64,000 bases of DNA from an uncultured Fimbriimonadales bacterium (GTDB taxonomy: Bacteria; Armatimonadota; Fimbriimonadia; Fimbriimonadales; GBS-DC), in NCBI GenBank assembly GCA_937992175.1, contig CALKLF010000005.1, positions 695 through 64,694 of the forward strand, written 5' to 3'. The notes under the pieces are model-generated. The model was not told where the DNA came from and did no database searches. It saw nothing but the letters and a program-made list of their open reading frames with translations. Positions 6,363 through 58,420 of this stretch are shown piece by piece (the first letter of the stretch is position 1; each line of letters opens with the position of its first letter). The position numbers were made by a program, and so were the translations under genes.

Positions 6363-6363
6363 G

Positions 6364-10642: not shown

Positions 10643-11247
10643 TGCAACGGATTGCGGTCACGGGCGGCGTCGCCGAAGGCAAGACCACCATCTTGCAAAT
10701 CTTCGAGTCGCTGGGCGCAGTCACGCTTAGCAGCGACCGCATCGCGGCGACGCTCCTCCTTCCAGGGACGGACTTATGGAGAGAACTGATTCGGGAGTTT
10801 GGGCAGGCGATTATCGAGGCGGATGGCGCGCTGGCGCGCGAGCGGCTAGCGCAAATAGCGTTCGGCGACGCGCAGCTTCGCCGTCGCCTGAACCGCCTGA
10901 TGCACCCCGCGGTTGTTCGTGCGCTGGAGATGCAGCTCAACGCGCTGGAAACCGCCTCTGCATCTGCTGTTTTAATCGAGGTTCCGCTGCTCATCGAAAC
11001 AGGGTTGCAGGGCTGGTTCGACGGCGTGATTGTGGCGCAGGCGACCCCTGCGCTCCAGCGACGGCGACTTCTGGAACGAGGTGTTCCCCCAGAACGCGCA
11101 CGACAGATTATCCGGGCGCAACTCCCCACGCGCTGCAAGGTCGCCTTCGCCGACTGGGTAATCCGCACGCATCGCTCGCTGGAGCAGGTCGAGCGGCAGG
11201 CGCGTCGAATCTGGCAATCGCTGACCGAGTCGCGTGGGGTATACTGA
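10642..11247 (+). CDS. coaE: Dephospho-CoA kinase
   Basis: MQRIAVTGGVAEGKTTILQIF P-loop. 201 aa. TAATG overlap with the rpsA stop. Confidence 0.85.
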   Translation: MQRIAVTGGVAEGKTTILQIFESLGAVTLSSDRIAATLLLPGTDLWRELIREFGQAIIEADGALARERLAQIAFGDAQLRRRLNRLMHPAVVRALEMQLNALETASASAVLIEVPLLIETGLQGWFDGVIVAQATPALQRRRLLERGVPPERARQIIRAQLPTRCKVAFADWVIRTHRSLEQVERQARRIWQSLTESRGVY

Positions 11248-11299
11248 GCAACGCAACGGAATTCGGTCTCGTTCGTCAAAAACGGACAGGAGTTTCTGG

Positions 11300-14200: not shown

Positions 14201-16849
14201 GAGAATGCGCGCCCCGTCTATCGCTACACGCGCCCGCGCAGCCCGGAGGTTGGCGGAACGCTTATAGGTACTTCCGATAGGGCAGGCTCGTATTACGCCG
14301 ACGCCGCGACCCACTCGAAAGTGGCGTTCCTCTCTTTCGGCTTGGAAGGTGTTAACTCAACTTACAATGACGGTCCGACAATCGGTGGACAGGGAACCCT
14401 CTGGTGCCGTTCCTACCGCAATAAGATACTGCATAACGCTTTCGGCTGGATGACGCACAGTGTGCTGGAGGGGCAGGTACGCCAGTACGACCCCGATACG
14501 CGCACTTTCACCCCGCTGCCGCGTGTGCTGGTGCGCGTGATTGGCATCGCGCCGATCAGCATCGCTGGAGTGAACGCGGGCTACGCCATCACCGACTCCA
14601 ACGGACTGTACCGCATCGTCGGACTGGAAGCGGGCGTCTATCTGGTCGATGCAGAACGCCCCGGCTTCAAGACCCAGCACCCTGAGACGATTACGCTCGT
14701 GGCGGATGCCGACCCGAATCCGGGCGTTATCAACCTGATTATGCTCGCCACGCCGCCCGGGCAGATTAGCGGGCGCGTCATCGATATCAATAATCAGCCC
14801 GTGCGTGGCGCCGTCATCCGTGCGACCAATACCGTGGATCCTGAACTGACCGTCGAGGTGTTCAGCGACCCCGACGGAACCTTCTTGATGCCGCGCGTGC
14901 CAGTCGGAAGCTGGGATGTAACGGTCGTCAGCCTCGCGTTCGGCGGCTACGCCCTGCCACCCATCCAGCCCACGCCCGACGGCGTCTACCGCAATGTGCA
15001 GGTACAGGCTGGAGAGACCACGAATGTTGGCGACTTCGTGCTAGAGCCTGAGCCGGGCACCGTAACGGGGACCGTGACAGATGTGAACACAGGGCAGCCA
15101 ATCGCCAACGCGCGTGTCACGGCGGTTGCAGGCACAAACACCCGCGCCGATGTGACCACCGACGCGAACGGACAATACACCTTCACTGTGCCCGCGGGCG
15201 AGTATGTGGTTACCGCCGTTGCACCCGGCTACGCGCCTGAGAGCCAGACGCTGAATGTGCCTGCGAACCAGACCACCACACTCAACTTCCAGCTGGCGCT
15301 GCTGCCGCCCGGCTCCGCTTCGGGCAAGATTACCCGACGCTTCGGCGGCGCACCTGAACCCGATGTGACGGTTGAATTGCGCTTCGGCACGGTGGTGGTT
15401 CAAACAGCGACAACCGACGCCAACGGCAACTACAGCTTCCCCAATGTGCCCCCCGGCGAGTATGTGGTTGTGCCCACCAAGACGGGGTTCACCTTTATCC
15501 CCAATCAGCGCACGATTACGGTGAATCCGAACCAGAACACCGTTATCGGCGAGTTCAAGTCGGAGCCGCTGCGCACCTTCTTCAAGGGACGCTTCCTGGT
15601 TTCCGCGCCGTATGACTACACGCAGGATGTGAAAGATCTGCTCGATGTGCCCGCGAGCGCGACCTTCCGCTTCTTCAGCTGGAATCCCGCGCAGTCGCGT
15701 TATGTGTTCTATCCGAACGCGCCGGCGAACCGCTTCGAGCTCGGACGCGGCTATTTCATCGAGACTTCGGTGGATCTACCCCTGACCACGCAGGGGACGC
15801 CTGCCAACACAAGTCAGCCGTTCCAGAGTCCGCTGCAGGCGGGCTGGACCATGATTGGCAATCCGTTCACTTTCGATGTGGACTGGAGCGCGGTGCAGGT
15901 GATTGACCCCGACACGAACTTGCCCGTCTCGCTGTCGACAGCGGTTGGCAAGGGCATCGTGGCGAACGCGCTGTGGGGCTACTCGTTCGGCGCGTACACG
16001 GCGACCACACGCATGAAAATCTGGGAAGGCTACTGGGTGTACGCCTACCGCAATACGACGCTGATTATCCCGCCGACGGCGCAAGCAGCGAGTGCGCCGA
16101 GCCGCAGCGCGAGCGCGAACGCAGGCGGCTGGCGGCTGACGCTAGAAGCGGAGTCGGGCGACCTGCGCGACCGCGCCTATGTGGGCGTCTCGCGCGCGGC
16201 GACGCCGGGCTATGACCGCGAGCATGACCTGCTCAAACCGCCCCCTGTCGGCTCGGACTATGTGCATATCAGCCTGCCGCGCCTCACCTGGGGCGAGCAG
16301 AGCGGCGTCTATGGCGTGGACATCCAGCCTGCAATCCGCAGCGCGAACTGGGAGTTCATCGTGGAGACCAGTCAGCCGAATCGGGAGGTCACCCTGCGCT
16401 GGCCCGACGCACAGCAACTGCCGCGCTCGGCGAACCTCGTGCTGATCAATCTCGACACAGGCGAGCGGCGCTACCTGCGCACCACAGGCGCGTACACCTT
16501 CCGCACGGGCGTAAGCGGCGTGAGCCGATTCCGCATCGAAATGACCTCCAGCGGCGGATTGCTGCGTATCCAGCAGGTGCAGGTGAACACTGGACGCGGC
16601 AATCAGCACACCATCGCGTTCCAGCTGACAGGAGATGCGACGGTGCAGGTGAATATTCTCTCCGGCGGCAGGGTGGTGCGCCAGCTGCTCCATCAGGCGA
16701 CGCGCAGCGGCGTGCAACAAGCCACCTGGGACGGGCGCGACCAGAGCGGCGTCGCGTTGCCGCCCGGCGCATACACGATTGAAATTCGAGCCGTGAGCGA
16801 GGATGGTCAGGTCGCGCGTGCGACCGCGCCGCTCATCCTCACGCGCTGA
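11300..16849 (+). CDS. Giant secreted multidomain protein: signal peptide, TolB-like PD40 beta-propeller, unassigned ~650-aa centre, 4x CarboxypepD_reg-like domains, shared C-terminal module ending in a FlgD-Ig-like domain
   Basis: The internal ATG at 11300 follows GGAG. Signal peptide WQLILAGLLLSLAGHAQG. PD40 blades EPAWSPDGNRVAFAR and RPTLSPGGNLVIFSSNR. CarboxypepD_reg repeats, e.g. VTGTVTDVNTGQPIANARVTA...DANGQYTFTVPAGEYVV. C-terminus ATWDGRDQSGVALPPGAYTIEIRA...APLILTR*. Confidence 0.85.
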   Translation: MLMESSNGRGGSNAVIRRWQLILAGLLLSLAGHAQGGDASQSPLQDRPSRNILPNARVREIPPQNYRVAPSRAPQDTSNVRWRKNGLFDPKQFHQQLQQRQQRTRAVRWDTDITNAATDEMHPVYNPGASKMYFASNAAGVGADGRLINPTPRYRIWRGDVDEGSQLYVGNLTNLIPITGDTPDEQFGSQIQPSLNTAANIIVYANRSAAGSYNIVVRNLSTGQRVVLTSDNNGVTQNLRPTLSPGGNLVIFSSNRLLSGETEADRRYRLYVARADGRPFEDGTFFRRVTFPAPGENDVEPAWSPDGNRVAFARIAADGSSYIYMLDFNTLTVVQWTNFVDASNNKPRDRQPAWTRIGNTPVLIFASTRKSGTPHQLGQPSDRVDVTGNIYDIYRMNAELPEPLSGSVLSLTADPSSASLARPDVPGVSFFVPAAGAKYPTGAIAERNRIAYHSTRTQGAESPGPGIHDLWETRAFDQTPPVMEILPIVSPKESFPGDTVTIKVRAVDLQSGVNFVRVQFKDPDSAEQDAEGLEHRLYQLFQFDIFFTNRILVDQGQAYVPLFVEVGHQAIHPETYEYKEPYSLARLGFDGSLDDTLLLQPELDDNGNPTDWYVGTWRTPDVPSDFYLDVIVRDNAGNEFIYDNVSGFTTQQFTGAHNILLVSDYMGGQIFVQNRVAAIGNSITRPTWQPVESYWTDNPTGKPPFDITQPPSGSGLIIHGDGAIPHPNLPPGFFIRSDTLGENTTYGNRYNIWRVQCRNPITPSVLAGYLPRTEREPTDLTGGFREKLHATRIVVWGSPYSGNVWAGPGHVLDPEVQALIRSFLQSSGRMVFSGQDIAWALTLRGAVANQFMIDILRVAFDSDSADDVFLTPYDGLRHQLEGVAPPSGEDPNPIASNPGGIGIWIRFEGNTVRVDSPAELRLSHPAAYLVLPNADLFDVITPITGGTGPLYTDAAWNQVWLDTVNVNENARPVYRYTRPRSPEVGGTLIGTSDRAGSYYADAATHSKVAFLSFGLEGVNSTYNDGPTIGGQGTLWCRSYRNKILHNAFGWMTHSVLEGQVRQYDPDTRTFTPLPRVLVRVIGIAPISIAGVNAGYAITDSNGLYRIVGLEAGVYLVDAERPGFKTQHPETITLVADADPNPGVINLIMLATPPGQISGRVIDINNQPVRGAVIRATNTVDPELTVEVFSDPDGTFLMPRVPVGSWDVTVVSLAFGGYALPPIQPTPDGVYRNVQVQAGETTNVGDFVLEPEPGTVTGTVTDVNTGQPIANARVTAVAGTNTRADVTTDANGQYTFTVPAGEYVVTAVAPGYAPESQTLNVPANQTTTLNFQLALLPPGSASGKITRRFGGAPEPDVTVELRFGTVVVQTATTDANGNYSFPNVPPGEYVVVPTKTGFTFIPNQRTITVNPNQNTVIGEFKSEPLRTFFKGRFLVSAPYDYTQDVKDLLDVPASATFRFFSWNPAQSRYVFYPNAPANRFELGRGYFIETSVDLPLTTQGTPANTSQPFQSPLQAGWTMIGNPFTFDVDWSAVQVIDPDTNLPVSLSTAVGKGIVANALWGYSFGAYTATTRMKIWEGYWVYAYRNTTLIIPPTAQAASAPSRSASANAGGWRLTLEAESGDLRDRAYVGVSRAATPGYDREHDLLKPPPVGSDYVHISLPRLTWGEQSGVYGVDIQPAIRSANWEFIVETSQPNREVTLRWPDAQQLPRSANLVLINLDTGERRYLRTTGAYTFRTGVSGVSRFRIEMTSSGGLLRIQQVQVNTGRGNQHTIAFQLTGDATVQVNILSGGRVVRQLLHQATRSGVQQATWDGRDQSGVALPPGAYTIEIRAVSEDGQVARATAPLILTR

Positions 16850-16879
16850 GACGCAGACTATGAAGGAGGAGCAATCAGG

Positions 16880-18658
16880 GTGAAAACACGGATGAGACGA
16901 ACTTGGGCGACGCGCACAGCGTATCTTGGTGTGATGAGTATGCTCGCGGTGGGGCTGCTCTTCCCGTCGGGCGCTGCGCGCGCCTACGCGCAGCTGGTGC
17001 AACTGCCGCGTATCGCGGTATTGGACTTCGAGAACAAGAGCGGGTACGGCGGCGCAAGCATCGCCCGCGCTGCAACCGACGCCGTCGCGGGCGAATACCA
17101 AAAAACAGGCAAGTATGAGGTGCTGGCGCGGGGCGAGGTGGAGCAACAGCTGAAAGATCTCGACCTCGCACCCCCACTCACAAAAACAGGTTTCCTTCGC
17201 CTCGGACGCGCACTGCAAGCCGAATCGATTATCACGGGCGAAGTGAGCGCCGTGACCTTTGTGGGCAGCCCGAAACAAGCACAGGTGGTGCTCACGGTGC
17301 GGGTCATCGATATCGCGTCGGGTGAACCCATCAACGGCGCAGTCGCCACAGGCTACAGTAATCGCCGCCCCGGCTACACAGGCGACGACGACACGCTCGT
17401 GCAGGAAGCCATCCGCAACGCCGCGTTCGAAGCCGTGCGCACCATCCAGAACTACACCATCCCCGAAGCGACCATCCTGACCACGCGCGCAGGCAAAGAG
17501 GTGCTGCTTAATCGCGGCATTCGCGGCGGATTGCAACCTGGCATGGAGATGATTGTCGTGCGCCGCGGCGAGGAAGTGGGGCGCATTCGCGTCACCCAAG
17601 TCTCCGATAGCGACGCGGTGGGCGAGATTATCGACTTCGGGCGCGGTATCCAGAGCGAAGACCGCGCGCGCGCAATCTATCGAGTGCCCACGGTGCAGGT
17701 GCGGGCAGGCAAAGTCAGAACGGAGCCATCGCGGCGCCCTGGTGAAGGGAACAAGCTCCTGCGCGCTCTGGGACCCGTCCTGATTATCGGGTTAATCGCT
17801 TTTGGCGTGGCGCGCGCCTCGTCGGGCGGCAACACGCCGGTGCAAACCGTGCTGGCGGAAGCAGGTGCGGACGGCAACTTCGAACCCTATGTGCGCATCT
17901 CGTGGAAAACCACTCTGTTCGCAAAAAGCGCACCCGACACGATTCAGTGGCAGATCTATCGCTCGGACTTTATTGGCACGGACGGCAACGGCAACCTGCT
18001 GCCTGTCGGCGTGACTCCAGGCAACCAAAATTTCTTCATCGATACCACAGTGCCGCGCACCTTCAGCTACGCCAGCCTGCTGCGTGAAGGCAGTGAGGAC
18101 TTGGAACTTGAAGAGCTGGAAGGTGCGCCTGGCGTTGCACCCGGACGCTCCTACACTTATCAAATCGCGTTGGTGTATCGCGAACGCATCGAGGCGGAAG
18201 GTGAAACGCTCATTCTGTTCAAGCTCTCCGACCGCGTGCGTTCGGGGCAGGTGACCGTGCTGCAGCCTGTGCAGTTGCTGACACCCGTCCAGCGCAGCGA
18301 AGATGTAGACCCCAAAGATGTGCGCTTCAGCTGGCTGGCAGCGGAAGGCGCGAACGCCTATCGCGTGGAGGTCTCGACCGATCCGACCTTCCGCGACCGA
18401 AGCCGTACCTTTGTTTCGAACGAGATTCTGTCAACCGCCGTAGGCGGCTCTCCAGTGTCTACAGACCGTATCAATCTGGAAACTGCCCTGCTCAATCGGC
18501 TGGGGCTGTTGGGGCAGCGCGTGACGCTCTACTGGCGCGTGGGTGCGCGCAACTTGGGTGATAACCCCGGACCAATCCCAGACCCCCAGAGCAAGCTGCG
18601 CTATGTGTGGAGCCGACCGTTCGAGTTCACCACGCAGGAGCTGCCGCCTGCTCCGTAG
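16880..18658 (+). CDS. Envelope protein: signal peptide, CsgG/LpoB-like alpha/beta domain, small beta domain, hydrophobic helix, two FN3/Ig-like domains
   Basis: GTG start 10 nt after GAAGGAGG. PRIAVLDFENKSGYGG...AGEYQKTGKYEVLARGEVEQQLKDLDL...AESIITGEVSAV fits the CsgG-family pattern. Hydrophobic helix LLRALGPVLIIGLIAFGVARA. Confidence 0.6.
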   Translation: MKTRMRRTWATRTAYLGVMSMLAVGLLFPSGAARAYAQLVQLPRIAVLDFENKSGYGGASIARAATDAVAGEYQKTGKYEVLARGEVEQQLKDLDLAPPLTKTGFLRLGRALQAESIITGEVSAVTFVGSPKQAQVVLTVRVIDIASGEPINGAVATGYSNRRPGYTGDDDTLVQEAIRNAAFEAVRTIQNYTIPEATILTTRAGKEVLLNRGIRGGLQPGMEMIVVRRGEEVGRIRVTQVSDSDAVGEIIDFGRGIQSEDRARAIYRVPTVQVRAGKVRTEPSRRPGEGNKLLRALGPVLIIGLIAFGVARASSGGNTPVQTVLAEAGADGNFEPYVRISWKTTLFAKSAPDTIQWQIYRSDFIGTDGNGNLLPVGVTPGNQNFFIDTTVPRTFSYASLLREGSEDLELEELEGAPGVAPGRSYTYQIALVYRERIEAEGETLILFKLSDRVRSGQVTVLQPVQLLTPVQRSEDVDPKDVRFSWLAAEGANAYRVEVSTDPTFRDRSRTFVSNEILSTAVGGSPVSTDRINLETALLNRLGLLGQRVTLYWRVGARNLGDNPGPIPDPQSKLRYVWSRPFEFTTQELPPAP

Positions 18659-18667
18659 GCTTACGCG

Positions 18668-18690
18668 GGGCGCAGGGGAAACCTGCGCCC
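18668..18690 (+). terminator. Stem-loop just after the stop of the 16880 gene (weak terminator or processing site)
   Basis: gggcgcagg-ggaaa-cctgcgccc. It is followed at a distance by tctttt. Confidence 0.35.
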
Positions 18691-18735
18691 TGTTCAAGCG
18701 TCTTTTCAACAGGCAATTATCGGGAGGAGATACCG

Positions 18736-21648
18736 ATGAAACGGATGTGGCGATGGCTGGTTGGAATAGTCATTGGAGTGCACTGCGCACTCGCGCAGAC
18801 GCTCACGCCCGACGATGTCGTGCCGGGTGAGATGTTGATGCGTCTCAAGCCGGGACGCACCATCGATACCGCGCGTGCAATTGCTAATAGCATCGACGCG
18901 GAGGTGCGTCCGATTGCGGTGCGTGATACCTATCTGTTGCGTCTGCGGGAGCAGGCAACGCCTTTGACCCTGCTCCAGAAGGTGCAGGATACTGTGAAAA
19001 CCCTTCAAGAGCACGCAGATGTCCTCTATATCGAACCGCACTACATCTTACAATATCATGACATCCCTAACGATCCACTGTTCTCGGAGCAGTGGGCGCT
19101 GCAGATGATGAAACTGCCCGCCGCGTGGGACATCGAAAAGGGCGCAACCGGGATTCGTGTTGCCTTCATCGACGATAACTTCCAGCGCTCACATCCTGAC
19201 CTTGCGGGGTTGTTCGACCCGCTTTCGCGCAACTTCGCTGCAGACACTCCCAACGACAATATCGACCCTGAAGGTCCAGGGTTTTCGCACGGCACCTCCA
19301 CAGTCGGCGTGGCAGCGGCTGTGACCAACAACGGCATCGGCATCGCGGGGCTCATCTGGGAGAATGTCAAAATTGTGGGGTTGAAAGTGACCCAGCGTCC
19401 GCTCGGTCCGCTGTTCACGCAGAATGTCCTGGAAGCCTACCAGCACGTGATTGACAACGCGGCGCAGATTCATGTGCTGAACATGAGTTATGGCGGCTAC
19501 TTCTTCTCGCCAATTGCGAACGATTTGATTCAGGAGATTTACCGTCGCGGCGTTGTACCCGTCGCTTCAGCAGGGAACGGCAACACCGACATTCCTTCCT
19601 ATCCTGCCAGTTATGACAATGTGGTGCGCGTCTCGGCAGTTGGACGCACGGGCGCGAAGGCGTCCTATTCCGATTATGGCAACATCGACCTCGCTGCGCC
19701 CGGCGGCGATCAGGCGAGCAGCTACTTCGATGGCGTGATTACCACCGCCTCGACCAGCCAGCTGTACGACTATGTGCAGGGGACTTCCTATTCGAGTCCC
19801 TATGTTGCTGCAGCGGTGGCGCTGCTGCTCTCTGCAGGTGCGCAGCGTCATGGACTGAACACGGTGGAGCCTGAGGCGGTTGTGGCGCTGAAAGAAACCG
19901 CCGATTCGCGCGGGCGTCCCGTGCCTGACCCGGAACTCGGCTACGGAATCATCGATTTGGATCAGGCGCTACGCGGCGTGGGCGGCGTCGGGATTGCGTT
20001 CATCGCGCCTGTCTCGGGCACGACCGTCGACACGCGCCAGGTGCGTGTTAATGTGGTTGTGCGCCGCGTGCTGAACAATAATCCGGCGAACATCTTGAAT
20101 GTGCGCCTGAACGATGACCCGCTGCCGCGCAGTCTCTGGGAGCCGACCGCCGTGGTGGATGTACCCCGAAAGACAATCACGCTGGACTTCGTCGTGACGC
20201 TTCCAGGCGAAGGGCGGCACACCATCTCGGTTGAGGCAATTGGGCAGGATGGCGTCACGGGCAGCCGCTCCACGCGCGTCGTCGCGAAAGCTTATGTGCA
20301 GAACGCGGGGTTGGCGATGTTCTCCACGCCCTACGATATCCAGCTCACTCCGGAGGAAGTGTTTGGCAACGATGTGATTCTGGCGCGCTATCTGCCCGAG
20401 GAGGGAACATACGCCCGCTACTCGGCGGTGTCGCAGGATCCCCGCGCGAGTTTCAATCCGCCTGGACTGGCAGTGCGTCCCGATGGCTCGAACACCCCAA
20501 CGCCGCCGCGCGGCGTGGGCTACTTCCTGCGCACCACTTCGCCCGCGTTCATTTTGGGGAATCAAGATGTGGACACCAATACCGCCTACCTGATCCCCCT
20601 CCAGGAAGGCTGGAACATGATTGGCAATCCGTTTCCCTTCAATGTGCCGTGGGCGGCGTGTGAGGTGGAAATCTTCAACGCAGGCGGGCAGACCCAGCGC
20701 ATCAGCCTGCAGGAAGCAGCCGACCGCGACTATATCCGACTACAGATTTATCGCTATGTCCCGCTCACTGGCGAATACACTTGGCGCACCGCGCCGCTGG
20801 GCGAGCTGCTTGCTTGGCAAGCGCACTGGGTGAAAGCCCTCAAACCCTGCACGCTCGTTGTGCCGCCCGTCGGCTCCGTGCGCAGTCGCGCCGATCAGTC
20901 GCCGCGCGTCGAAGCGAAGCAGTCGGACGGTTGGCTCATTCGCTTGATTGCCCGCAGCGGCGACCGCGAGGATGCCAATAACCTCATCGGCGTGACATCG
21001 CTTGCAAGCGACGAATTCGGACGCGAGGATGTGGAGAAACCGCCTGTATTCAAATCGTATGTCGCGGTGAACATCCTCGAACCGCGCACCCGCAGTGCGC
21101 TTGCGCACGACCTGCGACGCAACGCGAAACGGGCGCAGCGATGGGAAATTGAAGTTGCCACGGATCAGCCCGACGCAGAAACGACGCTGCAGTGGACTCA
21201 GGAACTCCCCGTGCCTAAAGGCACACGACTCACCCTGATTGACCAGGCGACGGGACAACGCGTCTCCATGCTGCAGCAAAGCTCCTATCGGTTCCGCACG
21301 GACGAAACCAGTCGCCGTCGTTTCGTGATTGAGGCGCAGCCCGCGCGCACGGGACGCCTGCAGGTGACGAATATCGCGGTGACGCAAACGCGCGGCAATC
21401 AGTACACCATCCAGTATATGCTCAACAGTGAGGCGTCCGTGCAAGTGTTGGTTCAGGATGCAACGGGGAAGACCATCGCGCGTCTACAGAATGGCACTCG
21501 CTCGGCGGGCGTCAGCACAGCGACCTGGAACGGACGCACCGATACGGGCATCGCCGTGCCTCCCGGAGCTTACCAGCTTCAGATTGTCGCGACGGGCGAT
21601 GAAGGCGAGGCAGTGCGCGTGGTTCGACCGCTGGTGGTCGCCCGCTAA
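18736..21648 (+). CDS. Secreted subtilisin-family (S8) serine peptidase with an I9-like propeptide and the shared C-terminal module
   Basis: ATG 18736 follows GGGAGGAG. Signal peptide MKRMWRWLVGIVIGVHCALA. Catalytic regions VAFIDDN (Asp), FSHGTSTVGV (His), GTSYSSPYVAAAVALL (Ser). C-terminus ATWNGRTDTGIAVPPGAYQLQIVA...RPLVVAR*. Confidence 0.9.
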   Translation: MKRMWRWLVGIVIGVHCALAQTLTPDDVVPGEMLMRLKPGRTIDTARAIANSIDAEVRPIAVRDTYLLRLREQATPLTLLQKVQDTVKTLQEHADVLYIEPHYILQYHDIPNDPLFSEQWALQMMKLPAAWDIEKGATGIRVAFIDDNFQRSHPDLAGLFDPLSRNFAADTPNDNIDPEGPGFSHGTSTVGVAAAVTNNGIGIAGLIWENVKIVGLKVTQRPLGPLFTQNVLEAYQHVIDNAAQIHVLNMSYGGYFFSPIANDLIQEIYRRGVVPVASAGNGNTDIPSYPASYDNVVRVSAVGRTGAKASYSDYGNIDLAAPGGDQASSYFDGVITTASTSQLYDYVQGTSYSSPYVAAAVALLLSAGAQRHGLNTVEPEAVVALKETADSRGRPVPDPELGYGIIDLDQALRGVGGVGIAFIAPVSGTTVDTRQVRVNVVVRRVLNNNPANILNVRLNDDPLPRSLWEPTAVVDVPRKTITLDFVVTLPGEGRHTISVEAIGQDGVTGSRSTRVVAKAYVQNAGLAMFSTPYDIQLTPEEVFGNDVILARYLPEEGTYARYSAVSQDPRASFNPPGLAVRPDGSNTPTPPRGVGYFLRTTSPAFILGNQDVDTNTAYLIPLQEGWNMIGNPFPFNVPWAACEVEIFNAGGQTQRISLQEAADRDYIRLQIYRYVPLTGEYTWRTAPLGELLAWQAHWVKALKPCTLVVPPVGSVRSRADQSPRVEAKQSDGWLIRLIARSGDREDANNLIGVTSLASDEFGREDVEKPPVFKSYVAVNILEPRTRSALAHDLRRNAKRAQRWEIEVATDQPDAETTLQWTQELPVPKGTRLTLIDQATGQRVSMLQQSSYRFRTDETSRRRFVIEAQPARTGRLQVTNIAVTQTRGNQYTIQYMLNSEASVQVLVQDATGKTIARLQNGTRSAGVSTATWNGRTDTGIAVPPGAYQLQIVATGDEGEAVRVVRPLVVAR

Positions 21649-21669
21649 CGGGAAGGAGGCGAACGGATT

Positions 21670-24363
21670 ATGAAACGATGGGTTTTGACATTACTGAGCA
21701 ACAGTATCCTGGTGGCGTCGCTCTGGGCGCAGGGGTCCTATCAGCCGGGACCTCTCGAGCCGTGTGGATGTCCCGATAACCAGAACCCTGTGAGCAGCGA
21801 CTACGGCGTTATCTTCGTCAGCAACGGCGTGCTGGGCGCGACGCTGGGCTTGAGCGGAACCGTGACCTGGTGGACGGGATGCTTCCCTATTGAGAACACC
21901 ACCTGTACGACGCGCCCTGCGGAGGGCAGTATCCAGCTCGGTACGGCAAGCGGCAGCAGTTTGCTGAACGACTCGGACATTGCCATGACCGCGGGCTACC
22001 CGTGGGCGGTTTATCCTGCAGGCATTTACATCACGATGCGCTCCGTGCGGGAAAACCAAACCCAGACTTTTGTCTGGGGACGTCAGGGGGGGCCTAATGT
22101 AACCTTTTCGCAAGCATGGCCTGGCGCCAGTGGCTACTACATTCGCCGCATCTGGAATGTAGAAGGATGGGATACTGACCTGCGCATCGACCTCATTCAG
22201 TCGGTGGCGCGGATTAGCCTGCGTGTGCGCAACAGCGGCGACACTGCAGCCTCGCTTGCGCTACGCCTGGCGTCGGATGTAGAGACCGGCGTCGAGGCAG
22301 GTTTTGTCCAGAATGGCGCGTCGCGACCGCCCTATGTCTATGTGCAGGGACAACGCCCAATCAAGATCGATTCCGACCTGCGCGGCTTGCAGATCCCCAA
22401 CGCCATCGAGTTCTATCTCGGGCGTGGTAACCTGCCTGGCTCGTCGCGCTACATGCTGCGACCCGTCAAAGGATTCGAAGACCAGACGCCCATCGACCGC
22501 CTGGTCATCGGGGACTGGTTCTTCGTACAGGGCACTACAATCTGGGAGCCCGTGTTATTCCCCGACTCGTTTATCGACGATGTGGCAATCAACCTGTTCG
22601 TCAACGCGCGCAACTTCGCGCCAGGGCAGACTCGCGAGTTTGTGTTTTATGTGACTCTGACTCCTGTGGATTTGGATGTTCAGCCTCCGATTGCGCTGGG
22701 TGTCGAGGCGCTGCCCGTTATCGAACCCGACCAGAGCAATCTGGGTCAGCTGGCGCAGGGTGGGCAGTTCCAGGTGTTTGCGAATGTAACCAATCAGTAT
22801 TTCATCGTCGGGCGCGAGATTGACCTGAATAATATCGTGGTCGACATCTCACTGCCGTCGGGATTGTCGCTCGCGCCGGGGCAGAGTCGTACTCGCACCA
22901 TCTCACGCCTTGCGCCGGGGCAAACCGCGCCTGTGAGCTGGGTTGTGGTTGCTGATCCCACCACCGTAGGGTTTACTACGATTCGGGTCTCCGTACAAGC
23001 CCCACCTGCGCCCACGAAATCGGTGACACGCACAATCCTCGTCTCCGCAACCGCGAACCGGAAGCTGGAATCGGGCTTTCAGATTGTCTCGATTCCGTTT
23101 ACGATGACGGGCACGCTGGAAGAGGTGTTGAACTTGCCCGTGGCGTATCAGGCGAAACGCTGGAACCCACAACGGGAACTGTACGAGACTATCGATACGA
23201 TTCAGCCGGGGCAGGGGTTCTGGCTCTTCTTGCCAGGCGACGCCATCATCGCGAACTACGATACGAGTGTCCTGCGGTTCCCTACTGGCGTGTTTGATGC
23301 CAGCCTGCCTGTGCCACTCAAGAAGGGCTGGAACCAGATTGGCAACCCCTATCCCTACCCGCTGGTGCTAGGGCAGGTGGTGGTCGTCGGCTCCAGTGAC
23401 CCGTCGTCCAGTCTAAGCTTCTTTGAGGCGGCGCAGCGGGGCGTGATTCGCGGCGTGCTGTATTACTGGGATGAGTTCACTAACGAGTATAAGTTCACTT
23501 CGGATCCCAACACGCCGCTGCTGCCCCATCGCGGCTACTGGATTAAGGTCAGTGAGGATGTGGAGTTCGTCTATCCTCCCGTCTTTCTGCCGGGCACAGG
23601 GTTTGGCGGTATCATTATCCGTTCAGCCAGTGAACCTGTGAACCGCCCCAACGACTGGCGATTGCAAATTGTCGCCCACACGAATCGCGGGGTGGATACG
23701 CAGAACTATATCGGCATTAGCAGTGGACGCTCGGCAGGCGATATCGAGGAGCCGCCCACGCCGCTGCCCGAACGCGCGGTGAACCTGACGATTCTCAAGT
23801 CGGGTACGGGAACGCCCCTAATGCAGGAAATCCGACCGCTGGCGAACCGACAACAGTTCGACCTGGTGGTGGAAGCCGCGCCAGGCGAGGAGGTCACACT
23901 GACCTTCCCGAACCTGAACACCGTGCCGCAGGGCTTCCGCCTCCGCCTGAACGACCTGAACACGGGACGCTCGATTGATCTGCGCACGACGCCCGAATAT
24001 CGGTTCGTCTCGACGGGACGCACGCGCCTGCAACTGACCGTGGAGCGCGCGGCGCGCACGGGCGCGTTGATTACCAGTGTGAATGTGGGCGCCGCGGGGC
24101 GCGGCGCGAACAGCGTCTCCATCTCCTATGTGCTGGCGGATAATGCCCAGACGAGCATCCAGATTCTGGGCTCCGACGGACGCACGGTTGCGAATCTGCA
24201 TCGCGGGCGTGCGGCGACGCGCGGCGTGAACACGGTTGCGTGGAACCTGCGCGACGACCAGGGACGCGCGGTACCGCCCGGAACCTATCAGGTGCAGGTG
24301 GAGGCGCGCACCGAAGACGGTCAGGTTGCTCGCGCGACGCGACCGCTCGTGCTGACGCGCTAA
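21670..24363 (+). CDS. Secreted protein of unknown function (novel N-terminal ~450 aa, CARDB/NEW3-like Ig domain) carrying the shared C-terminal module
   Basis: GAAGGAGG lies upstream. Signal peptide MKRWVLTLLSNSILVASLWAQG. GWNQIGNPYPYP...GYWIKV...VAWNLRDDQGRAVPPGTYQVQVEA...RPLVLTR*. Confidence 0.8.
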   Translation: MKRWVLTLLSNSILVASLWAQGSYQPGPLEPCGCPDNQNPVSSDYGVIFVSNGVLGATLGLSGTVTWWTGCFPIENTTCTTRPAEGSIQLGTASGSSLLNDSDIAMTAGYPWAVYPAGIYITMRSVRENQTQTFVWGRQGGPNVTFSQAWPGASGYYIRRIWNVEGWDTDLRIDLIQSVARISLRVRNSGDTAASLALRLASDVETGVEAGFVQNGASRPPYVYVQGQRPIKIDSDLRGLQIPNAIEFYLGRGNLPGSSRYMLRPVKGFEDQTPIDRLVIGDWFFVQGTTIWEPVLFPDSFIDDVAINLFVNARNFAPGQTREFVFYVTLTPVDLDVQPPIALGVEALPVIEPDQSNLGQLAQGGQFQVFANVTNQYFIVGREIDLNNIVVDISLPSGLSLAPGQSRTRTISRLAPGQTAPVSWVVVADPTTVGFTTIRVSVQAPPAPTKSVTRTILVSATANRKLESGFQIVSIPFTMTGTLEEVLNLPVAYQAKRWNPQRELYETIDTIQPGQGFWLFLPGDAIIANYDTSVLRFPTGVFDASLPVPLKKGWNQIGNPYPYPLVLGQVVVVGSSDPSSSLSFFEAAQRGVIRGVLYYWDEFTNEYKFTSDPNTPLLPHRGYWIKVSEDVEFVYPPVFLPGTGFGGIIIRSASEPVNRPNDWRLQIVAHTNRGVDTQNYIGISSGRSAGDIEEPPTPLPERAVNLTILKSGTGTPLMQEIRPLANRQQFDLVVEAAPGEEVTLTFPNLNTVPQGFRLRLNDLNTGRSIDLRTTPEYRFVSTGRTRLQLTVERAARTGALITSVNVGAAGRGANSVSISYVLADNAQTSIQILGSDGRTVANLHRGRAATRGVNTVAWNLRDDQGRAVPPGTYQVQVEARTEDGQVARATRPLVLTR

Positions 24364-24371
24364 ATTGGCAT

Positions 24372-24396
24372 GGGCTGGAGCCGCGCGCTCCAGCCC
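24372..24396 (+). terminator. Perfect stem-loop 9 nt after the stop of the 21670 gene
   Basis: gggctggagc-cgcgc-gctccagccc. No clear U-tract follows. Confidence 0.35.
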
Positions 24397-24415
24397 TTCT
24401 GTGAAGGAGGTAAAG

Positions 24416-25111
24416 GTGAAAAGTATCGGCGTACTAATCATCGCTTTACTTTTGATGAGGGGCTTCGCGGCGGATGAGGCGCGCGAGCTGGTGCTGTTCC
24501 CCTTCGGACAGGGAGCCGCCGTGCAGCCCGTGGAGGAGTTTAATGTCGAGGTAGAGGCTCTGAACGCGCTCTACGCCCAGCTGAAGGACCTTCCAAGCTT
24601 GTATGTGCTGCGCTATCGGGAGACGAACCCGTCCATCCGCCGCGCGATTGACGAGAACCGTATCCGCCGCGACCGCCTGACCCCGCCGTTCAACGAGCGC
24701 GAGGCGGACGGCACATGGCGCGCGGCGCGCGTGGGTGCGCTGCTCGGCGTCGACCTCGCGTTCGCCGGGCGCATCGAGGAGTCCAGCTACGACCCGAACT
24801 TGCGCGAGGCGATTGTGACCATCAGCGGCGACCTAATCGATGTGCAATCAGGCGAGGTGCTGGTCTCCGTTGCGGAAACCGGGCGCGGAAGGCTCGGCAC
24901 CGATCAGGACGATCCGAATGTCGCCCGCATCGCGGCGGTTGCGCAGGCGGCGGAGAAAATCGGCGCCGCCATTCGCACGCACCTCGCGCCGCCCGCCGAG
25001 CAACCGACCACCGTCGAGGAGCGAAAACAGCCTGACCGCAAGCGCGAGCGGGCGGCGGTCACGCTCTTCGTGCTGATTCTCGGCGCGGTGCTGGGCGGCG
25101 CCCAATTCTAA
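24416..25111 (+). CDS. Periplasmic CsgG/LpoB-like-fold protein with an N-terminal signal and a C-terminal tail-anchor helix
   Basis: The in-frame GTG at 24416 lies 5 nt after GAAGGAGG. (M)KSIGVLIIALLLMRGFA; ELVLFPFGQG...LGVDLAFAGRIEESSY...ISGDLIDVQSGEVL. The extreme C-terminus is AAVTLFVLILGAVLGGAQF*. Confidence 0.55.
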   Translation: MKSIGVLIIALLLMRGFAADEARELVLFPFGQGAAVQPVEEFNVEVEALNALYAQLKDLPSLYVLRYRETNPSIRRAIDENRIRRDRLTPPFNEREADGTWRAARVGALLGVDLAFAGRIEESSYDPNLREAIVTISGDLIDVQSGEVLVSVAETGRGRLGTDQDDPNVARIAAVAQAAEKIGAAIRTHLAPPAEQPTTVEERKQPDRKRERAAVTLFVLILGAVLGGAQF

Positions 25112-25115
25112 CTGA

Positions 25116-27056
25116 ATGCGCACGGGCAGTAAAATCCATCGATACTGGAGCGGGGCAGGGGGGTTGTGGCTCCTCTGCCTTTGCGCTTGCTGGGCAAACG
25201 GTGCGATTCGGCTCACCGCCTATCCGACCGCGGCAGTCGCCGATAGCGCGTCGCAGATTCTCATCACCGCCGAAGTGCGCACCGCGCAGGGCAAACCCGC
25301 GCCTGACGGAACCCAGATCGCCTTCAACACAACGCTCGGCGTGTTTCGGGAGTCTATCGTCGCGACCGAGAGCGGCGTCGCACGCGCAACGCTCATCGCC
25401 AGTCAGCTGCCTGGAACCGCGACCATCACGGCGACCGCCATCGGGCAGGGCGTCGTGGGCGAAGTGCAGGTGCTGTTCGTGGCGACTCAAGAGGAGCTGC
25501 GCAGCGCAACCGACTATGTGCAGGTGCTCGGCGAGTATCTTGCCTATGCCAACGAACAGCGCGTGATTGCTGCCTCTGGCAAGGAGCGCACCGCCAGCGT
25601 GCGATTCAGCTTCACACTGATTGAGGCAGATGACCTGCAACTGGAAGTCGACAGCCTGCGTGTCAAAGCCCGCAACGCCCGCTTGAAGTACGGCTCGGAG
25701 CAGCACGAGTTCGCGGAGCTGAGCTACGAGCTGCGCTCCTCGCAGGGGTTTGGGGTGCGCCAGCGCGAGAACCGCTGGGAAGTTGTACGAATCCGCTCTG
25801 GCGCGATTGAGCCGTTTGACGCCGTTGCCCCGCCTGAACTGTTCCAATTCGCCGACATTTCCGAATCGGAGCTGGTTATCAAAGCGGCGCAAATCTGGTT
25901 CTATCCGGGCGAACGCATCCAGTTCCATCGGGCGGAGTTCTATGTGGGCGAGGTGAGGTCGCTGAGCCTGCCGCTCTATTCGCAGAGCCTCTGGAGCGGC
26001 GGGGTGGGGAGCGACGCGCTGATTGGGGTGCAGAACGGGCAGGTGTATCTGGATGTGCCGTATTATTACGCGCTGACCCCGACGCAGATTGGGGCGTTGC
26101 GCCTGCGCACCGCGCAGGTCGGCGGGCGCACGATGGGCGCCGCGCGCGGAATGTTTCTGGATCTGGAGCATGAGTATCGTGTGGAACTGGGTACGGGGAT
26201 GTTCAGCATAACGGGTCTCGCGCGCGACGACTGGGGCGTGAATTGGCGACACCAGCAGCCGCTCTCGCCGACCACGCGCTTCACCATGTGGCTCGACTCA
26301 CCTGCCCATCGAGGCGTCTACGGCTCCGCGCAGCTCGCTCATCAGGCGCGGGGCTTCTCGACGGGCTTGACCCTCGCGGGCAGCACGCACTGGCAGGGCG
26401 TACGCGCCAGCAGCCTGCGTTCCGATTTGTTCATTGAAACCACCCCGCGCCGCGTATCTGACCTGCCCGTGCGCCAGAGCTTTTCGCTGAGTCTCACATC
26501 GAGCCGCACTCAAAACACGCTTGGCATTCAAAACCGCGAAGGGATCGGCGTGCGAGTGCGCTGGAACCTGATCCCGCAGTCGCTTGGACGCTCCACGACG
26601 CTCACAGGGGGCATGACCGTCGGGCGGTTCGTGGGCAACCTTCCTAATGCGGGCTGGAGCATTACGGGTACAGTGGGGATTACGCACGCGCTGGGGAACA
26701 GCGGCGCGCTCAGCCTGAACTATGACTACACGCAGGACGCCCTCGCCGCGAACCTGCTGGGCAGACATCGCCTCTCAGGGAGCCTCGGCTGGAGCCTGAG
26801 CGACCGCTTTTACCTCACGGGCTACATGAGCCGCGCACTGGATGCCGATTCTGTGAGTTATGTCGGGGATTTCTCGTGGCGAATCAGCCCCCTCTGGCGA
26901 ATAGGCGTCGGGTATACTTTGCAGTCGTACAATCAGTACGACTTTCGCGATCAGACCTTGACAATCGCATACCGCATCGGCTACCGTGAGGTGGCGCTGA
27001 CATGGTCGTCTTTCACCCGGCGATGGAGCTTCGACCTGCTCACAGCGTTTTATTAA
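25116..27056 (+). CDS. Outer-membrane beta-barrel protein with an N-terminal Big_1-type Ig domain and an LptD/OstA-like middle region
   Basis: Signal peptide GLWLLCLCACWANG. Ig domain: SQILITAEVRTAQGKPAPDGTQIAFNTTLGVF...GTATITATA. The C-terminal half is alternating-pattern beta strands ending ...WSFDLLTAFY* (aromatic terminus). FHRAEFYVGEVRSLSLPLYSQSL recalls the LptD jellyroll-barrel junction; this comparison is from memory. Confidence 0.5.
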   Translation: MRTGSKIHRYWSGAGGLWLLCLCACWANGAIRLTAYPTAAVADSASQILITAEVRTAQGKPAPDGTQIAFNTTLGVFRESIVATESGVARATLIASQLPGTATITATAIGQGVVGEVQVLFVATQEELRSATDYVQVLGEYLAYANEQRVIAASGKERTASVRFSFTLIEADDLQLEVDSLRVKARNARLKYGSEQHEFAELSYELRSSQGFGVRQRENRWEVVRIRSGAIEPFDAVAPPELFQFADISESELVIKAAQIWFYPGERIQFHRAEFYVGEVRSLSLPLYSQSLWSGGVGSDALIGVQNGQVYLDVPYYYALTPTQIGALRLRTAQVGGRTMGAARGMFLDLEHEYRVELGTGMFSITGLARDDWGVNWRHQQPLSPTTRFTMWLDSPAHRGVYGSAQLAHQARGFSTGLTLAGSTHWQGVRASSLRSDLFIETTPRRVSDLPVRQSFSLSLTSSRTQNTLGIQNREGIGVRVRWNLIPQSLGRSTTLTGGMTVGRFVGNLPNAGWSITGTVGITHALGNSGALSLNYDYTQDALAANLLGRHRLSGSLGWSLSDRFYLTGYMSRALDADSVSYVGDFSWRISPLWRIGVGYTLQSYNQYDFRDQTLTIAYRIGYREVALTWSSFTRRWSFDLLTAFY

Positions 27057-37019: not shown

Positions 37020-37040
37020 ACACGGACAGGATTGTCCGTG

Positions 37041-38522: not shown

Positions 38523-38569
38523 AGAGGATTAATAGGGTAGGAGCAGGGTCGCCCTGCCCCTCCCCCTGC

Positions 38570-39424: not shown

Positions 39425-39438
39425 TTGCCTCCCTCCAA

Positions 39439-58294: not shown

Positions 58295-58407
58295 AGCGTG
58301 GGAAATCGCCGGCGCGTTTCCCCCAGTTGAGGTCAGGTCGTGTACCATGATTAGACCTGTAGGAGCGGGTTCCAAAAATTGAGCGTGGACACAGCACTAC
58401 TTTCAGG

Positions 58408-58413
58408 TACACT
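58408..58413 (+). promoter_or_regulatory. -10 box TACACT, 7 nt upstream of ATG 58421; leaderless-type promoter
   Basis: Reads caGGTACACTttttgccATG. Confidence 0.45.
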
Positions 58414-58420
58414 TTTTGCC

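Follow-up and report, generated by a model that had tools for sequence, protein, structure and literature searches.

The gene at 25116..27056 (+ strand) of the 64-kb window, by which we mean the whole stretch of DNA analysed, encodes a protein in which a signal peptide is followed by an intimin/invasin-type Ig domain, a beta-jellyroll of the OstA/LptA/LptD_N type and a C-terminal beta-barrel. We consider this protein, here termed Ig-LptD, to be probably the Armatimonadota form of LptD, the LPS translocon of the phylum. The gene and its architecture are real and far beyond chance, since a search of a 1.84-billion-protein library returned relatives in 602 cluster representatives (E <= 1e-3), and the architecture was conserved in the best 150 of these. 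Domain architecture, LptD homology, conservation and synteny are observed directly; what the protein would transport, how it would sit in the membrane and what its Ig domain and its neighbours would do is inferred, and the mechanism proposed below is modelled by homology on the LptD of E. coli and Shigella.

Jellyroll, hinge and barrel of Ig-LptD

The initial annotation gave the exact coordinates of the reading frame (646 aa, ATG start, the end coordinate including the stop), and all of the peptides that it quoted were found in the translation. As read from the translation and from a helix at residues 2-23 of the model, a signal peptide occupies residues ~1-29 (25116..25202, + strand). It has no canonical lipobox, and it holds the only cysteines of Ig-LptD; because the mature protein has no cysteine, it lacks interdomain disulfides, which in E. 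coli LptD pair C31/C173 with C724/C725 (PMC12644819). The AlphaFold2 model was confident (mean pLDDT 82, pTM 0.72), and DSSP assigned to it the helix at 2-23, Ig strands at 30-122, ~17 strands at 135-291 and ~22 strands at 303-642. The beta-rich middle and the C-terminal strand-loop region that had been described from the letters are both present in this model, and the structure prediction and strand count that had been recommended yielded a barrel region of ~22 strands. The RNA scan found no Rfam family, no tRNA was found, and promoter and terminator matches were at chance level only.

The first line of evidence for LptD homology is structural. In a Foldseek search against the PDB, ranks 1-14 were all LptD, with E-values down to 1.4e-16; full-length LptD chains scored at ~1e-16 to 1e-12, far ahead of barrel-only LptD cores at ~1e-7, a gap that speaks for an LptD-type jellyroll, and LptD barrels were the best structural matches to the barrel of Ig-LptD, at TM-scores that were low (~0.3). 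The second is a profile built from 66 divergent relatives, which matched N. gonorrhoeae LptD 7omm at E = 5.3e-9 (chain residues 105-352, an alignment that spans the jellyroll and the first barrel strands), LptD 8h1r at E = 1.8e-3 and LptA 8onu at E = 4.5e-3. When the family profile was aligned by hhalign with the single E. coli LptD sequence, the result was E = 4.1e-4 (Prob 35%). Weak matches to LptD_N (PF03968; 5 of 66 relatives, best E 0.0018) and to LptC (PF06835; 2 of 66) were the only recurring non-Ig Pfam families among these relatives. Sequence homology to LptD covers the jellyroll and roughly the first five strands of the barrel, and the remainder of the barrel is related by fold alone.

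Curated models gave a mixed answer to the proposal that OstA, LptD and Big_1 families be sought: Big_1 was matched, while neither PF04453 (LptD) nor PF03968 matched Ig-LptD in Pfam even at E <= 1, and PF04453 was not among the 25 families listed for the 66 relatives. E. coli LptD, used as a positive control, carries both PF03968 and PF04453. The initial annotation had left two readings side by side: LptD in a divergent form to which an Ig domain has been added, or a barrel of a new class that serves the upstream cargos. The former is supported by the Foldseek ranking, by the profile matches to LptD and LptA and by the motif alignment described below; the latter is not supported, because the barrel is homologous to that of LptD.

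The jellyroll, the OstA/LptD_N-like 'beta-taco', was delimited by DSSP strands and profile alignment to residues ~135-291 (25518..25988, + strand) and has a short helical insertion at ~240-250. It is followed by a hinge loop at residues 292-302 (25989..26021, + strand), which is the sole low-confidence internal segment of the model (pLDDT < 50 at 293-300) and which aligns with the hinge at residues 220-230 of E. coli LptD. Barrel strand beta2 carries the motif VPYYYALTP (V314-P322; 26055..26081, + strand), and its P315 is one of only two residues invariant in the 66 divergent relatives. By hhalign this motif aligns with L245-P253 of E. coli LptD (LPYYWNIAP), such that P315 pairs with P246, P322 with P253 and, further upstream, P286 with P214; the corresponding stretch of N. 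gonorrhoeae LptD reads VPYYFNLAP. P231 and P246 of E. coli LptD are conserved prolines that are important for function, and P246 is the pivot proline (PMC12644819). The equivalent of P231 in beta1 is missing from Ig-LptD, where D300 occupies the aligned position and no proline occurs between residues 293 and 314.

The barrel itself (residues 303-642; 26022..27056 with the stop, + strand) was defined by DSSP and Foldseek and ends in ...WSFDLLTAFY. In the predicted model its 344 residues form 22 strand elements joined by very short loops, compared with 26 strands in canonical LptD. The strand-loop region noted initially as ending in ...FDLLTAFY is a barrel of ~22 strands in the model, and the terminal aromatic residue (...TAFY) is conserved throughout the family. 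A report on A. longum describes an LptD with 16 strands and no LptE (PMC13018214), so 26 strands are not universal for LptD.

If Ig-LptD works as the LptD of E. coli and Shigella does, Sec would export it and BAM would fold it into the outer membrane, with the C-terminal aromatic residue as part of its beta-signal. In the periplasm, the jellyroll would complete the hydrophobic Lpt bridge at its outer-membrane end and would take LPS, or the lineage's own lipid-A-based glycolipid, from an LptA-like protein. Where jellyroll and barrel meet, the lipid would leave the groove of the jellyroll and enter the membrane; the sugar part would travel through the barrel lumen and exit sideways, through a seam where the first strand meets the last, for which P315, as the counterpart of P246, may serve as the flex point.

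A conserved gene cassette upstream of the barrel gene

The family was restricted to Armatimonadota and was found across the sampled lineages, with a single gene copy in each locus fetched; in the species scan, each genome gave one locus. The loci included one from a complete genome (L015, AP024673.1, +/-10 kb around the gene), and the gene often adjoins rpsA-coaE. Public records label members of the family only as 'Ig-like domain-containing' or 'hypothetical'. Armatimonadota is a phylum reported to have lipid A genes, and all four core LPS genes are present in the cultured Chthonomonas calidirosea and Fimbriimonas ginsengisoli (PMC5007114), which speaks for a need for LptD. Within the 64-kb window there was no second LptD. 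No lpt, lpx or other LPS gene was found among the ~40 ORFs scanned there or in the annotated loci, which counts against an LptD assignment.

Ig-LptD is the last gene of a six-gene cassette ordered w1871, w592, S8 subtilase (w1013), w897, w248 and Ig-LptD. The same order, which is a giant FlgD_ig protein, a ~600-700-aa PelC-like protein, an S8 protease with FlgD_ig, a ~900-aa FlgD_ig protein, a ~240-aa PelC-like protein and the Ig-barrel, recurs in a locus at 37% identity (L002) and in another at ~26% (L055). Genes in the cassette are packed with 4-nt spacing, and internal terminators were not beyond chance. A locked operon of secreted FlgD_ig-tailed proteins and a protease is not obviously needed by a housekeeping LPS translocon. 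The suggestion that the barrel serves the genes upstream of it thus found a basis in an operon conserved down to ~26% identity, and this conservation keeps a cargo-linked role alive as a secondary hypothesis.

That hypothesis holds that Ig-LptD is an LptD-derived paralogue which serves a dedicated six-gene envelope system in the outer membrane, either as its conduit or as a platform for assembly, with another protein exporting LPS; we regard it as unlikely, at somewhat better than one chance in five. Here the barrel, w248 and w592 would export, surface-expose or anchor three FlgD_ig-tailed proteins, of which the S8 protease may process the others; alternatively, the barrel would export a specific glycolipid or polysaccharide that the FlgD_ig proteins bind. 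Beyond the retained gene order and tight packing, the hypothesis draws on the proteins themselves. The first gene, w1871 (11234..16849, + strand), encodes a giant secreted protein with, by Pfam, a PD40 repeat, four CarboxypepD_reg domains and a FlgD_ig tail, and a 2151-aa equivalent heads the cassette in L055. The S8 subtilase (18607..21648, + strand; Pfam Peptidase_S8 1.9e-36, FlgD_ig 3.2e-15; likely true start M44 at 18736) is also encoded in L002 and L055. The most constant neighbour is w897 (21670..24363, + strand), a secreted multi-beta-sandwich protein; in 44 loci a full-length orthologue (23-91% identity) lies upstream of the gene for the barrel. Its AlphaFold2 model (pLDDT 82), made from a shallower alignment out of the protein search, starts with a carbohydrate-binding-like supersandwich, continues with Ig-like domains and closes with a FlgD_ig domain (Pfam, 811-882), and Foldseek matched it to GH94 and polysaccharide-lyase N-terminal domains and to macroglobulin-like strings of Ig domains. 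The S8 subtilase, w897 and w1871 have a C-terminal region of 350-450 aa in common, as expected of a sorting or anchoring module, and the carbohydrate-binding-like domain of w897 also speaks for this reading.

The PelC match of w248 points in the same direction. The gene for w248 (24365..25111, + strand; the listed start is a TTG, and the true one probably lies ~20 codons further downstream) stops 4 nt short of the barrel gene. It encodes an exported alpha/beta protein in which a basic cluster precedes a hydrophobic helix at the C-terminus; an orthologue lies immediately upstream of the barrel gene in 35 loci. It had no Pfam match, and its profile matched PelC, the periplasmic partner of the PelB export barrel, over only ~65 residues (5t11/5t10, E ~1e-5, best 7.8e-6; 9h80_C, 3e-3). 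By hhalign, w248 is a paralogue of the N-terminal domain of w592 (Prob 97.5%, E = 5.7e-12). As delineated by Pfam and hhalign, w592 (16880..18658, + strand; orthologues in 32 loci) consists of a signal peptide, a PelC/CsgG/TolB_N-like domain, a small beta-domain, a hydrophobic helix and FN3-like domains; its residues 42-191 gave weak Pfam matches to CsgG, TolB_N and LptE, and against the PDB it gave FN3 matches only, in its C-terminal half (399-494). No LptE family rose above noise in the cassette, where the only trace was E = 0.098 on w592, and the w248 profile had no sequence similarity to E. coli LptE (Prob 0.2%). Missing LptE is as expected, because diderm Terrabacteria lack both outer-membrane lipoproteins and LptE, the latter also in A. 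longum (PMC13018214), and their Lpt system goes without lipoprotein subunits. We propose w248 and w592 as the best candidates for accessory subunits that replace LptE.

Precedents exist for both readings of such a locus. Non-LPS functions have been proposed for LptD homologues, namely B. burgdorferi surface lipoproteins (which is debated) and A. longum F7NII2. Two LptD-like proteins coexist in the A. longum genome (PMC13018214). Conversely, in Negativicutes LptD is likewise linked to unknown outer-membrane proteins and is accepted there as LptD (PMC5491611). Several features further argue against a paralogue devoted to secretion: Ig-LptD keeps an OstA-type jellyroll, which is sensible only as the end of a lipid bridge, together with an invariant lateral-gate proline; a ~22-strand barrel is an implausible exit for proteins of 900-1900 aa that are folded into several domains; no protein-secretion barrel of the LptD fold is established; and no second LptD is known from these genomes. 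We therefore favor the assignment of Ig-LptD as the LptD of the phylum. A more speculative idea, to which we give a low probability, is that the phylum-wide cassette is an unrecognised outer-membrane machine of diderm Terrabacteria that couples glycolipid insertion to the export, processing or surface anchoring of large proteins, whose common C-terminal module of ~400 residues ends in FlgD_ig. Within such a machine, the LptD-derived translocon and its periplasmic Ig domain would work together with the PelC-like proteins and the S8 protease.

The N-terminal Ig domain

The Ig-like domain of the Big_1/Invasin_D3 type lies N-terminal of the jellyroll (residues ~30-123; 25203..25484, + strand) and was recognised by Pfam and by PDB profile matches. 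On residues 31-123, Invasin_D3 (PF09134) scored 38.6 bits against a cut-off of 33 and Big_1 (PF02369) scored 35.2 bits against 34.9, so that both matches clear their cut-offs narrowly. Solved invasin and intimin Ig domains were matched by profile at E = 6e-8 and, in a second search, at 8e-11. The domain was found in 66/66 divergent relatives scanned, and 8 of the 15 nearly invariant positions of the family fall inside it, which bears out the initial identification of an intimin/invasin-type domain. We predict that it is periplasmic, and it is probably a docking or spacing module for a periplasmic partner.

Inverse autotransporters (intimin, invasin; type Ve) contain the same type of domain, in long extracellular arrays rather than the single copy found here, and carry an unrelated barrel of 12 strands at the N-terminus. 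As had been pointed out, the domain order of Ig-LptD is the opposite, with the Ig domain N-terminal and the barrel C-terminal. Classical autotransporters begin with the passenger and end with the barrel, and Ig-LptD might accordingly be read as an autotransporter-like adhesin of type Va order, a mirror image of intimin and invasin that passes its Ig domain through its barrel. We judge this very improbable: a 160-residue LptD-type jellyroll separates the two domains, the barrel has ~22 strands and not 12, no autotransporter family was detected by Pfam or NCBIfam, and no autotransporter chain was among the 50 structural matches listed. Moreover, a single 90-residue Ig domain is not an adhesive array, and its high conservation is at odds with a diversifying passenger.

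It is scarcely credible that Ig-LptD instead belongs to another large-barrel family, for instance the chaperone-usher pores, the TonB-dependent receptors or the TpsB/FhaC-type transporters, and has a superficial likeness to LptD. These families do appear lower in the Foldseek list (ushers 5e-8 at best, FhaC 1.5e-5, TonB-dependent receptors 3.7e-5 at best), where they trail LptD by 8 to 12 orders of magnitude. Pfam and NCBIfam gave no match to Usher, TonB_dep_Rec, POTRA or plug families, and the independent sequence-profile matches reached LptD and LptA only. Inverse and classical autotransporters, ushers, TonB-dependent receptors and FhaC-type transporters were rejected on these grounds.

Significance and comparison with known systems

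An LPS outer membrane cannot be built without LptD. 'Atypical' (Terrabacterial) diderms have been reported to lack the protein, and this has served as an argument for more than one origin of outer membranes (PMC8871954). A phylum-wide LptD homologue of Armatimonadota that curated models miss would add a further lineage beside the atypical LptDs of diderm Firmicutes, and it suggests that reported absences of LptD can be failures of detection. Ig-LptD would also sample another solution to the translocon, in which the barrel is smaller, LptE and the disulfides are missing, a single gate proline is retained and an Ig domain is added, and could help to sort which features of LptD are mechanistically indispensable. 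The conserved operon offers concrete candidates for accessory subunits of Terrabacterial LPS translocons, or else for a surface-protein system that would be new. The alignments made here would allow the family to be given a name and a model of its own. Should the cassette act as one six-gene machine, it would functionally parallel the way in which the type IX secretion system (T9SS) links its cargo to LPS, with different parts, and would offer a lipoprotein-free answer to the LptE problem.

The T9SS resembles the cassette in that several large secreted proteins, one of them a protease, carry a small Ig-like C-terminal domain, and its cargo is attached to a form of LPS. In the cassette the protease belongs to the S8 subtilases; PorU, the T9SS sortase, is a cysteine protease of the C25 type. 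The tail of w897 weakly matched the PorU C-terminus (NCBIfam E = 4.3e-4; Foldseek 6za2 2.6e-5); beyond this match no T9SS component was found in the window or the annotated loci, and the cassette has no homologue of SprA, PorV or PorK-N. We considered the FlgD_ig proteins as T9SS cargo and rejected this, as only FlgD_ig (PF13860) and the weak PorU match were found and no T9SS model or machinery was detected. To our knowledge, the T9SS has not been described in Armatimonadota. In the Pel polysaccharide system, PelC with PelB provides a parallel to w248, likewise a small exported alpha/beta protein beside an outer-membrane barrel. PelC, however, is a lipoprotein, while w248 and w592 have a hydrophobic helix and no lipobox cysteine, and the barrel beside w248 is LptD-like rather than PelB-like.

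Canonical LptD (E. coli, Shigella, Klebsiella, Neisseria; 4q35, 5iv9, 7omm) shares with Ig-LptD the signal peptide, the jellyroll and, as far as the model shows, a large C-terminal barrel, as well as the 'PYY(W/F/Y)xxxP' motif in beta2, the pivot proline, the hinge loop and the terminal aromatic residue. Ig-LptD differs in its lower strand number, in having no Pfam match to LptD, no beta1 proline, no LptE and an extra Ig domain, and its gene does not lie beside surA, lpt or lpx genes. Pseudomonad LptD (8h1r/8h1s, the murepavadin target) has a ~100-residue extra domain before the jellyroll on the periplasmic side (PMC6372539), a position comparable to that of the Ig domain. The alignment of our family profile with 8h1r (924 aa) begins at chain residue 148, so this chain, too, is extended by a long stretch at its N-terminus. 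For the pseudomonad insert, neither fold nor function is described as known, whereas the domain of Ig-LptD is a recognisable Big_1, and pseudomonad LptD is otherwise canonical and works with LptE.

The LptDs of diderm Firmicutes (Vpar_0647 of V. parvula; F7NLY8 of A. longum) were compared by description. They too are terrabacterial, were first missed by sequence searches, have a reduced barrel and lack LptE (PMC5491611, PMC13018214). Their genes lie away from the LPS cluster, after conserved unknown genes that have been proposed as possible LptE equivalents (PMC5491611, PMC13018214); for Vpar_0647, a conserved gene to which no function is assigned lies upstream, and the LPS cluster is elsewhere (PMC5491611). 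The available text reports no Ig domain in these proteins and, for A. longum, 16 strands, versus ~22 here, and the conserved neighbours of Ig-LptD are much larger than those described there and include a protease and FlgD_ig-tailed proteins.

Fold and sequence relationships of Ig-LptD

The open reading frame investigated here, Ig-LptD, runs from 25116..27056 on the + strand, the position given in the initial annotation; it starts with ATG and encodes 646 residues, and all of the peptides quoted in that annotation were found in its translation. The intimin/invasin-type Ig domain reported at its N-terminus was recovered by Pfam (Invasin_D3 / Big_1, residues 31-123), with scores that barely exceed the curated cut-offs (38.6 bits vs 33; 35.2 vs 34.9). 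For the window protein, residues 124-646 matched no Pfam or NCBIfam family, and the OstA/LptD_N and LptD models of these databases gave no match even at E <= 1. In a Pfam scan of divergent relatives the Ig domain was kept in 66/66. With 8 of the 15 nearly invariant family positions inside it, this domain is probably more than an inert add-on.

An AlphaFold2 model built from 50 full-length homologues (alignment A1) was confident (mean pLDDT 82, pTM 0.72). It comprises a signal-peptide helix (residues 2-23), Ig strands (residues 30-122) followed by a short helix, a beta-rich domain (residues 135-291), the sole low-confidence loop reported (residues 293-300) and long beta-hairpin strands (residues 303-642), which number ~22 as DSSP elements, with a margin of about two either way. 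Using this model as a Foldseek query against the PDB, we found that the best 14 matches were all LptD (14/14). E-values were 1.4e-16 to 1e-12 for full-length LptD chains and about 1e-7 for barrel-only LptD cores; the best scores of other barrels were 5e-8 for ushers, 1.5e-5 for FhaC and 3.7e-5 for TonB-dependent receptors. Jellyroll-containing LptD chains thus outscored the cores by about nine orders of magnitude, and the match therefore draws on the middle domain as well as on the barrel. TM-scores to LptD were low, about 0.3, which fits a predicted barrel of another size and another relative orientation of the domains.

In profile searches, the close relatives of A1 gave a marginal LptD match (7omm, E = 0.16). 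When the Ig domain was left out of the profile (A2), 602 cluster representatives were retrieved at E <= 1e-3 among 1.84 billion proteins; the best 150 of the 602 were all strong matches, and nearly all full-length members among these 150 have a layout of ~120 N-terminal residues and then ~526. The profile of 66 divergent members (A3), which are 24-34% identical to the window protein, matched N. gonorrhoeae LptD in the PDB (E = 5.3e-9) across the jellyroll and first barrel strands, as well as a second LptD (8h1r, E = 1.8e-3) and LptA (8onu, E = 4.5e-3). Recognisable LptD motifs were aligned at residue level, with profile 'gsnGltldlPyYyslsP' pairing with 'GSDGVSLSVPYYFNLAP' and 'rAtvYvdgkkvlslP' with 'HAAFVFGGVPLFYTP'. 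Alignment to E. coli LptD as a single sequence was weak overall (hhalign Prob 35%, E = 4e-4) and paired the family-invariant P315, P322 and P286 with P246, P253 and P214, respectively. LptD_N and LptC were the only recurring non-Ig Pfam families among the 66 relatives, each matched weakly (LptD_N in 5/66, best E = 0.0018; LptC in 2/66). The window protein is a true though very divergent LptD homologue, and the fold and profile matches to LptD support the earlier proposal of a divergent LptD with an extra Ig domain.

A six-gene cassette ending in Ig-LptD

The Ig-LptD gene (25116-27056) is the sixth and last of a series of tightly packed + strand genes located 3' of rpsA and coaE; no promoter or terminator signals above chance level were detected in the cassette region. 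The preceding five, named for their lengths in residues, are w1871 (11234-16849, +), with a PD40 repeat, four CarboxypepD_reg domains and a FlgD_ig tail; w592 (16880-18658, +), in which a PelC/CsgG/TolB_N-like domain and a hydrophobic helix are followed by FN3-like domains; w1013 (18607-21648, +), an S8 subtilase with a FlgD_ig tail; w897 (21670-24363, +), with an N-terminal supersandwich, Ig-like domains and a FlgD_ig tail; and the PelC-like w248 (24365-25111, +; E about 1e-5), separated from the Ig-LptD gene by 4 nt. In the AlphaFold2 model of w897 (pLDDT 82), the supersandwich resembles GH94 phosphorylases and polysaccharide lyases. Two starts, listed mechanically as GTG 18607 for the S8 protease, where it overlaps w592, and TTG 24365 for w248, probably lie too far upstream: signal-peptide-like sequence begins at M44 (18736) in the former and about 20 codons in for the latter, downstream of the spans 18607-18735 and 24365-24424.

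The three FlgD_ig proteins have in common a C-terminal module of 350-450 residues at 28-33% identity (+ strand; 15596-16846 in w1871, 20593-21645 in w1013 and 23080-24360 in w897). It far exceeds the 80-residue FlgD_ig domain in length, is absent elsewhere in the window, and has the look of a module by which all three proteins are anchored or sorted. By hhalign (Prob 97.5%), w248 and the N-terminal domain of w592 are paralogues, the former also matching PelC structures. In both, an exported domain is followed by a basic cluster and then directly by the hydrophobic helix, and neither has a lipobox; this topology is odd, since it puts the basic residues on what should be the periplasmic side.

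Elsewhere in the window, two adjacent proteins of 416 and 465 residues (5112-7761, +), with an amidohydrolase and rpsA downstream of them, each end in FHA domains, of which the second has two. A stand-alone N6_N4 DNA methylase (47252-48034, -) and a 417-residue protein with a C-terminal Fic domain (58379-59632, +) were also found. Across window positions 1-64000 we detected no tRNA genes and no Rfam families at the gathering threshold.

Conservation of the cassette and its hosts

A scan of species-representative genomes yielded 49 Ig-LptD loci, labelled Fimbriimonadales, Fimbriimonadaceae, Fimbriimonadia, Chthonomonadia or Chthonomonas among others, one of them (L015) a complete 2.99-Mb genome. 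Each fetched locus has one copy, and all homologues with organism names belong to Armatimonadota. The cassette (window 11234-27056, +; L055:1-12181, L002:1-11944, L005-L029) follows a conserved order of a giant CarboxypepD_reg/FlgD_ig protein, a ~600-residue PelC-like protein, an S8 protease with FlgD_ig, a ~900-residue FlgD_ig protein, a ~240-residue PelC-like protein and, last, Ig-LptD; in L055 the same six-gene order persists at about 26% protein identity. In 44 loci a w897 orthologue lies upstream of the barrel gene. Fimbriimonadaceae-type loci are without w248 and have a conserved ~600-residue gene directly downstream of the barrel gene (L001:11964-13745, L054:12111-13970, and in L031, L038, L040, L041, L043, L044, L046, L047, L050 and L051); this gene has no Pfam match and is absent from the window. 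Neither the window nor any annotated locus has lpt or lpx genes near Ig-LptD. One contig from a Victivallales-labelled MAG (L030, CAZJBP010000132.1) carries the entire Armatimonadota cassette, with w592, S8, w897, w248 and the barrel at 27-39% identity. The contig is probably mis-binned, which is the simplest reading, transfer to another phylum being a conceivable one.

Armatimonadetes are described in the literature as OmpM-tethered diderm Terrabacteria. The two cultured representatives each possess the full set of four core LPS genes (PMC5007114), and so require an outer-membrane LPS translocon. Independent evidence for a beta-barrel-containing outer membrane in this organism comes from a Porin_O_P-type porin, which precedes a phosphate-uptake cluster of an ABC ATPase, two permeases and a PBP_like_2 binding protein (35272-40758, -).

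Proposed function and relation to known LptD

The best-supported explanation is that Ig-LptD is probably the LptD of Armatimonadota. Its jellyroll would take LPS from the periplasmic Lpt bridge, and release into the outer leaflet would occur via a lateral seam of the barrel, with P315, the beta2 proline of the VPYYYALTP motif (V314-P322) that is invariant across the 66 divergent relatives, as the flex point. The main rival reading, which we consider unlikely, is a paralogue derived from LptD that serves only the cassette, for instance by exporting or anchoring the proteins with FlgD_ig tails or a glycolipid to which these bind. Some functional coupling is favored by how deeply the operon is conserved, and passages of PMC13018214 describe two LptD-like proteins coexisting in one Acetonema longum genome, but Ig-LptD retains both the gate proline and the jellyroll specific to the Lpt pathway, and passage of folded 900-1900-residue proteins through such a barrel is implausible. 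That the cassette constitutes a new surface-protein system is unlikely. We rejected an usher, TonB-receptor or TpsB transporter, which have Foldseek scores far below full-length LptD, and an autotransporter, on Pfam/NCBIfam, the AlphaFold2 model and Foldseek.

Atypical Terrabacterial LptDs have already been documented; in the literature searched, we found no link between LptD and Armatimonadota and no description of the Ig-jellyroll-22-strand architecture, its Armatimonadota spread or the fixed six-gene operon. Ig-LptD, as an LptD homologue of this phylum, bears on the debate about LptD in Terrabacteria, and its cassette yields testable candidate partners for LptE-independent translocons. No LptE was detected in the cassette, either by Pfam scan or by comparing the w248 profile with E. 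coli LptE, and the PelC-like w248 and w592 may, by analogy with atypical Terrabacterial LptDs, be candidates for accessory subunits.

Compared with canonical LptD, Ig-LptD has an N-terminal Ig domain that the former lacks, a barrel of ~22 rather than 26 strands, and no match to either of the two curated LptD domains carried by the E. coli protein. The beta1 proline of E. coli LptD (P231) has no counterpart, and interdomain disulfides of the E. coli type are impossible because the mature protein contains 0 cysteines. Pseudomonad LptD offers a precedent for an additional periplasmic domain at the N-terminus (PMC6372539). These oddities fit the picture emerging for diderm Terrabacteria, in which lipoprotein subunits are reported missing from the Lpt and Bam machineries. 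According to passages of PMC5491611, Veillonella parvula LptD was initially overlooked by sequence searches, is encoded outside the LPS cluster, and has a conserved uncharacterised upstream gene proposed as a possible LptE equivalent, and A. longum LptD is described in passages of PMC13018214 as a 16-stranded barrel without LptE.
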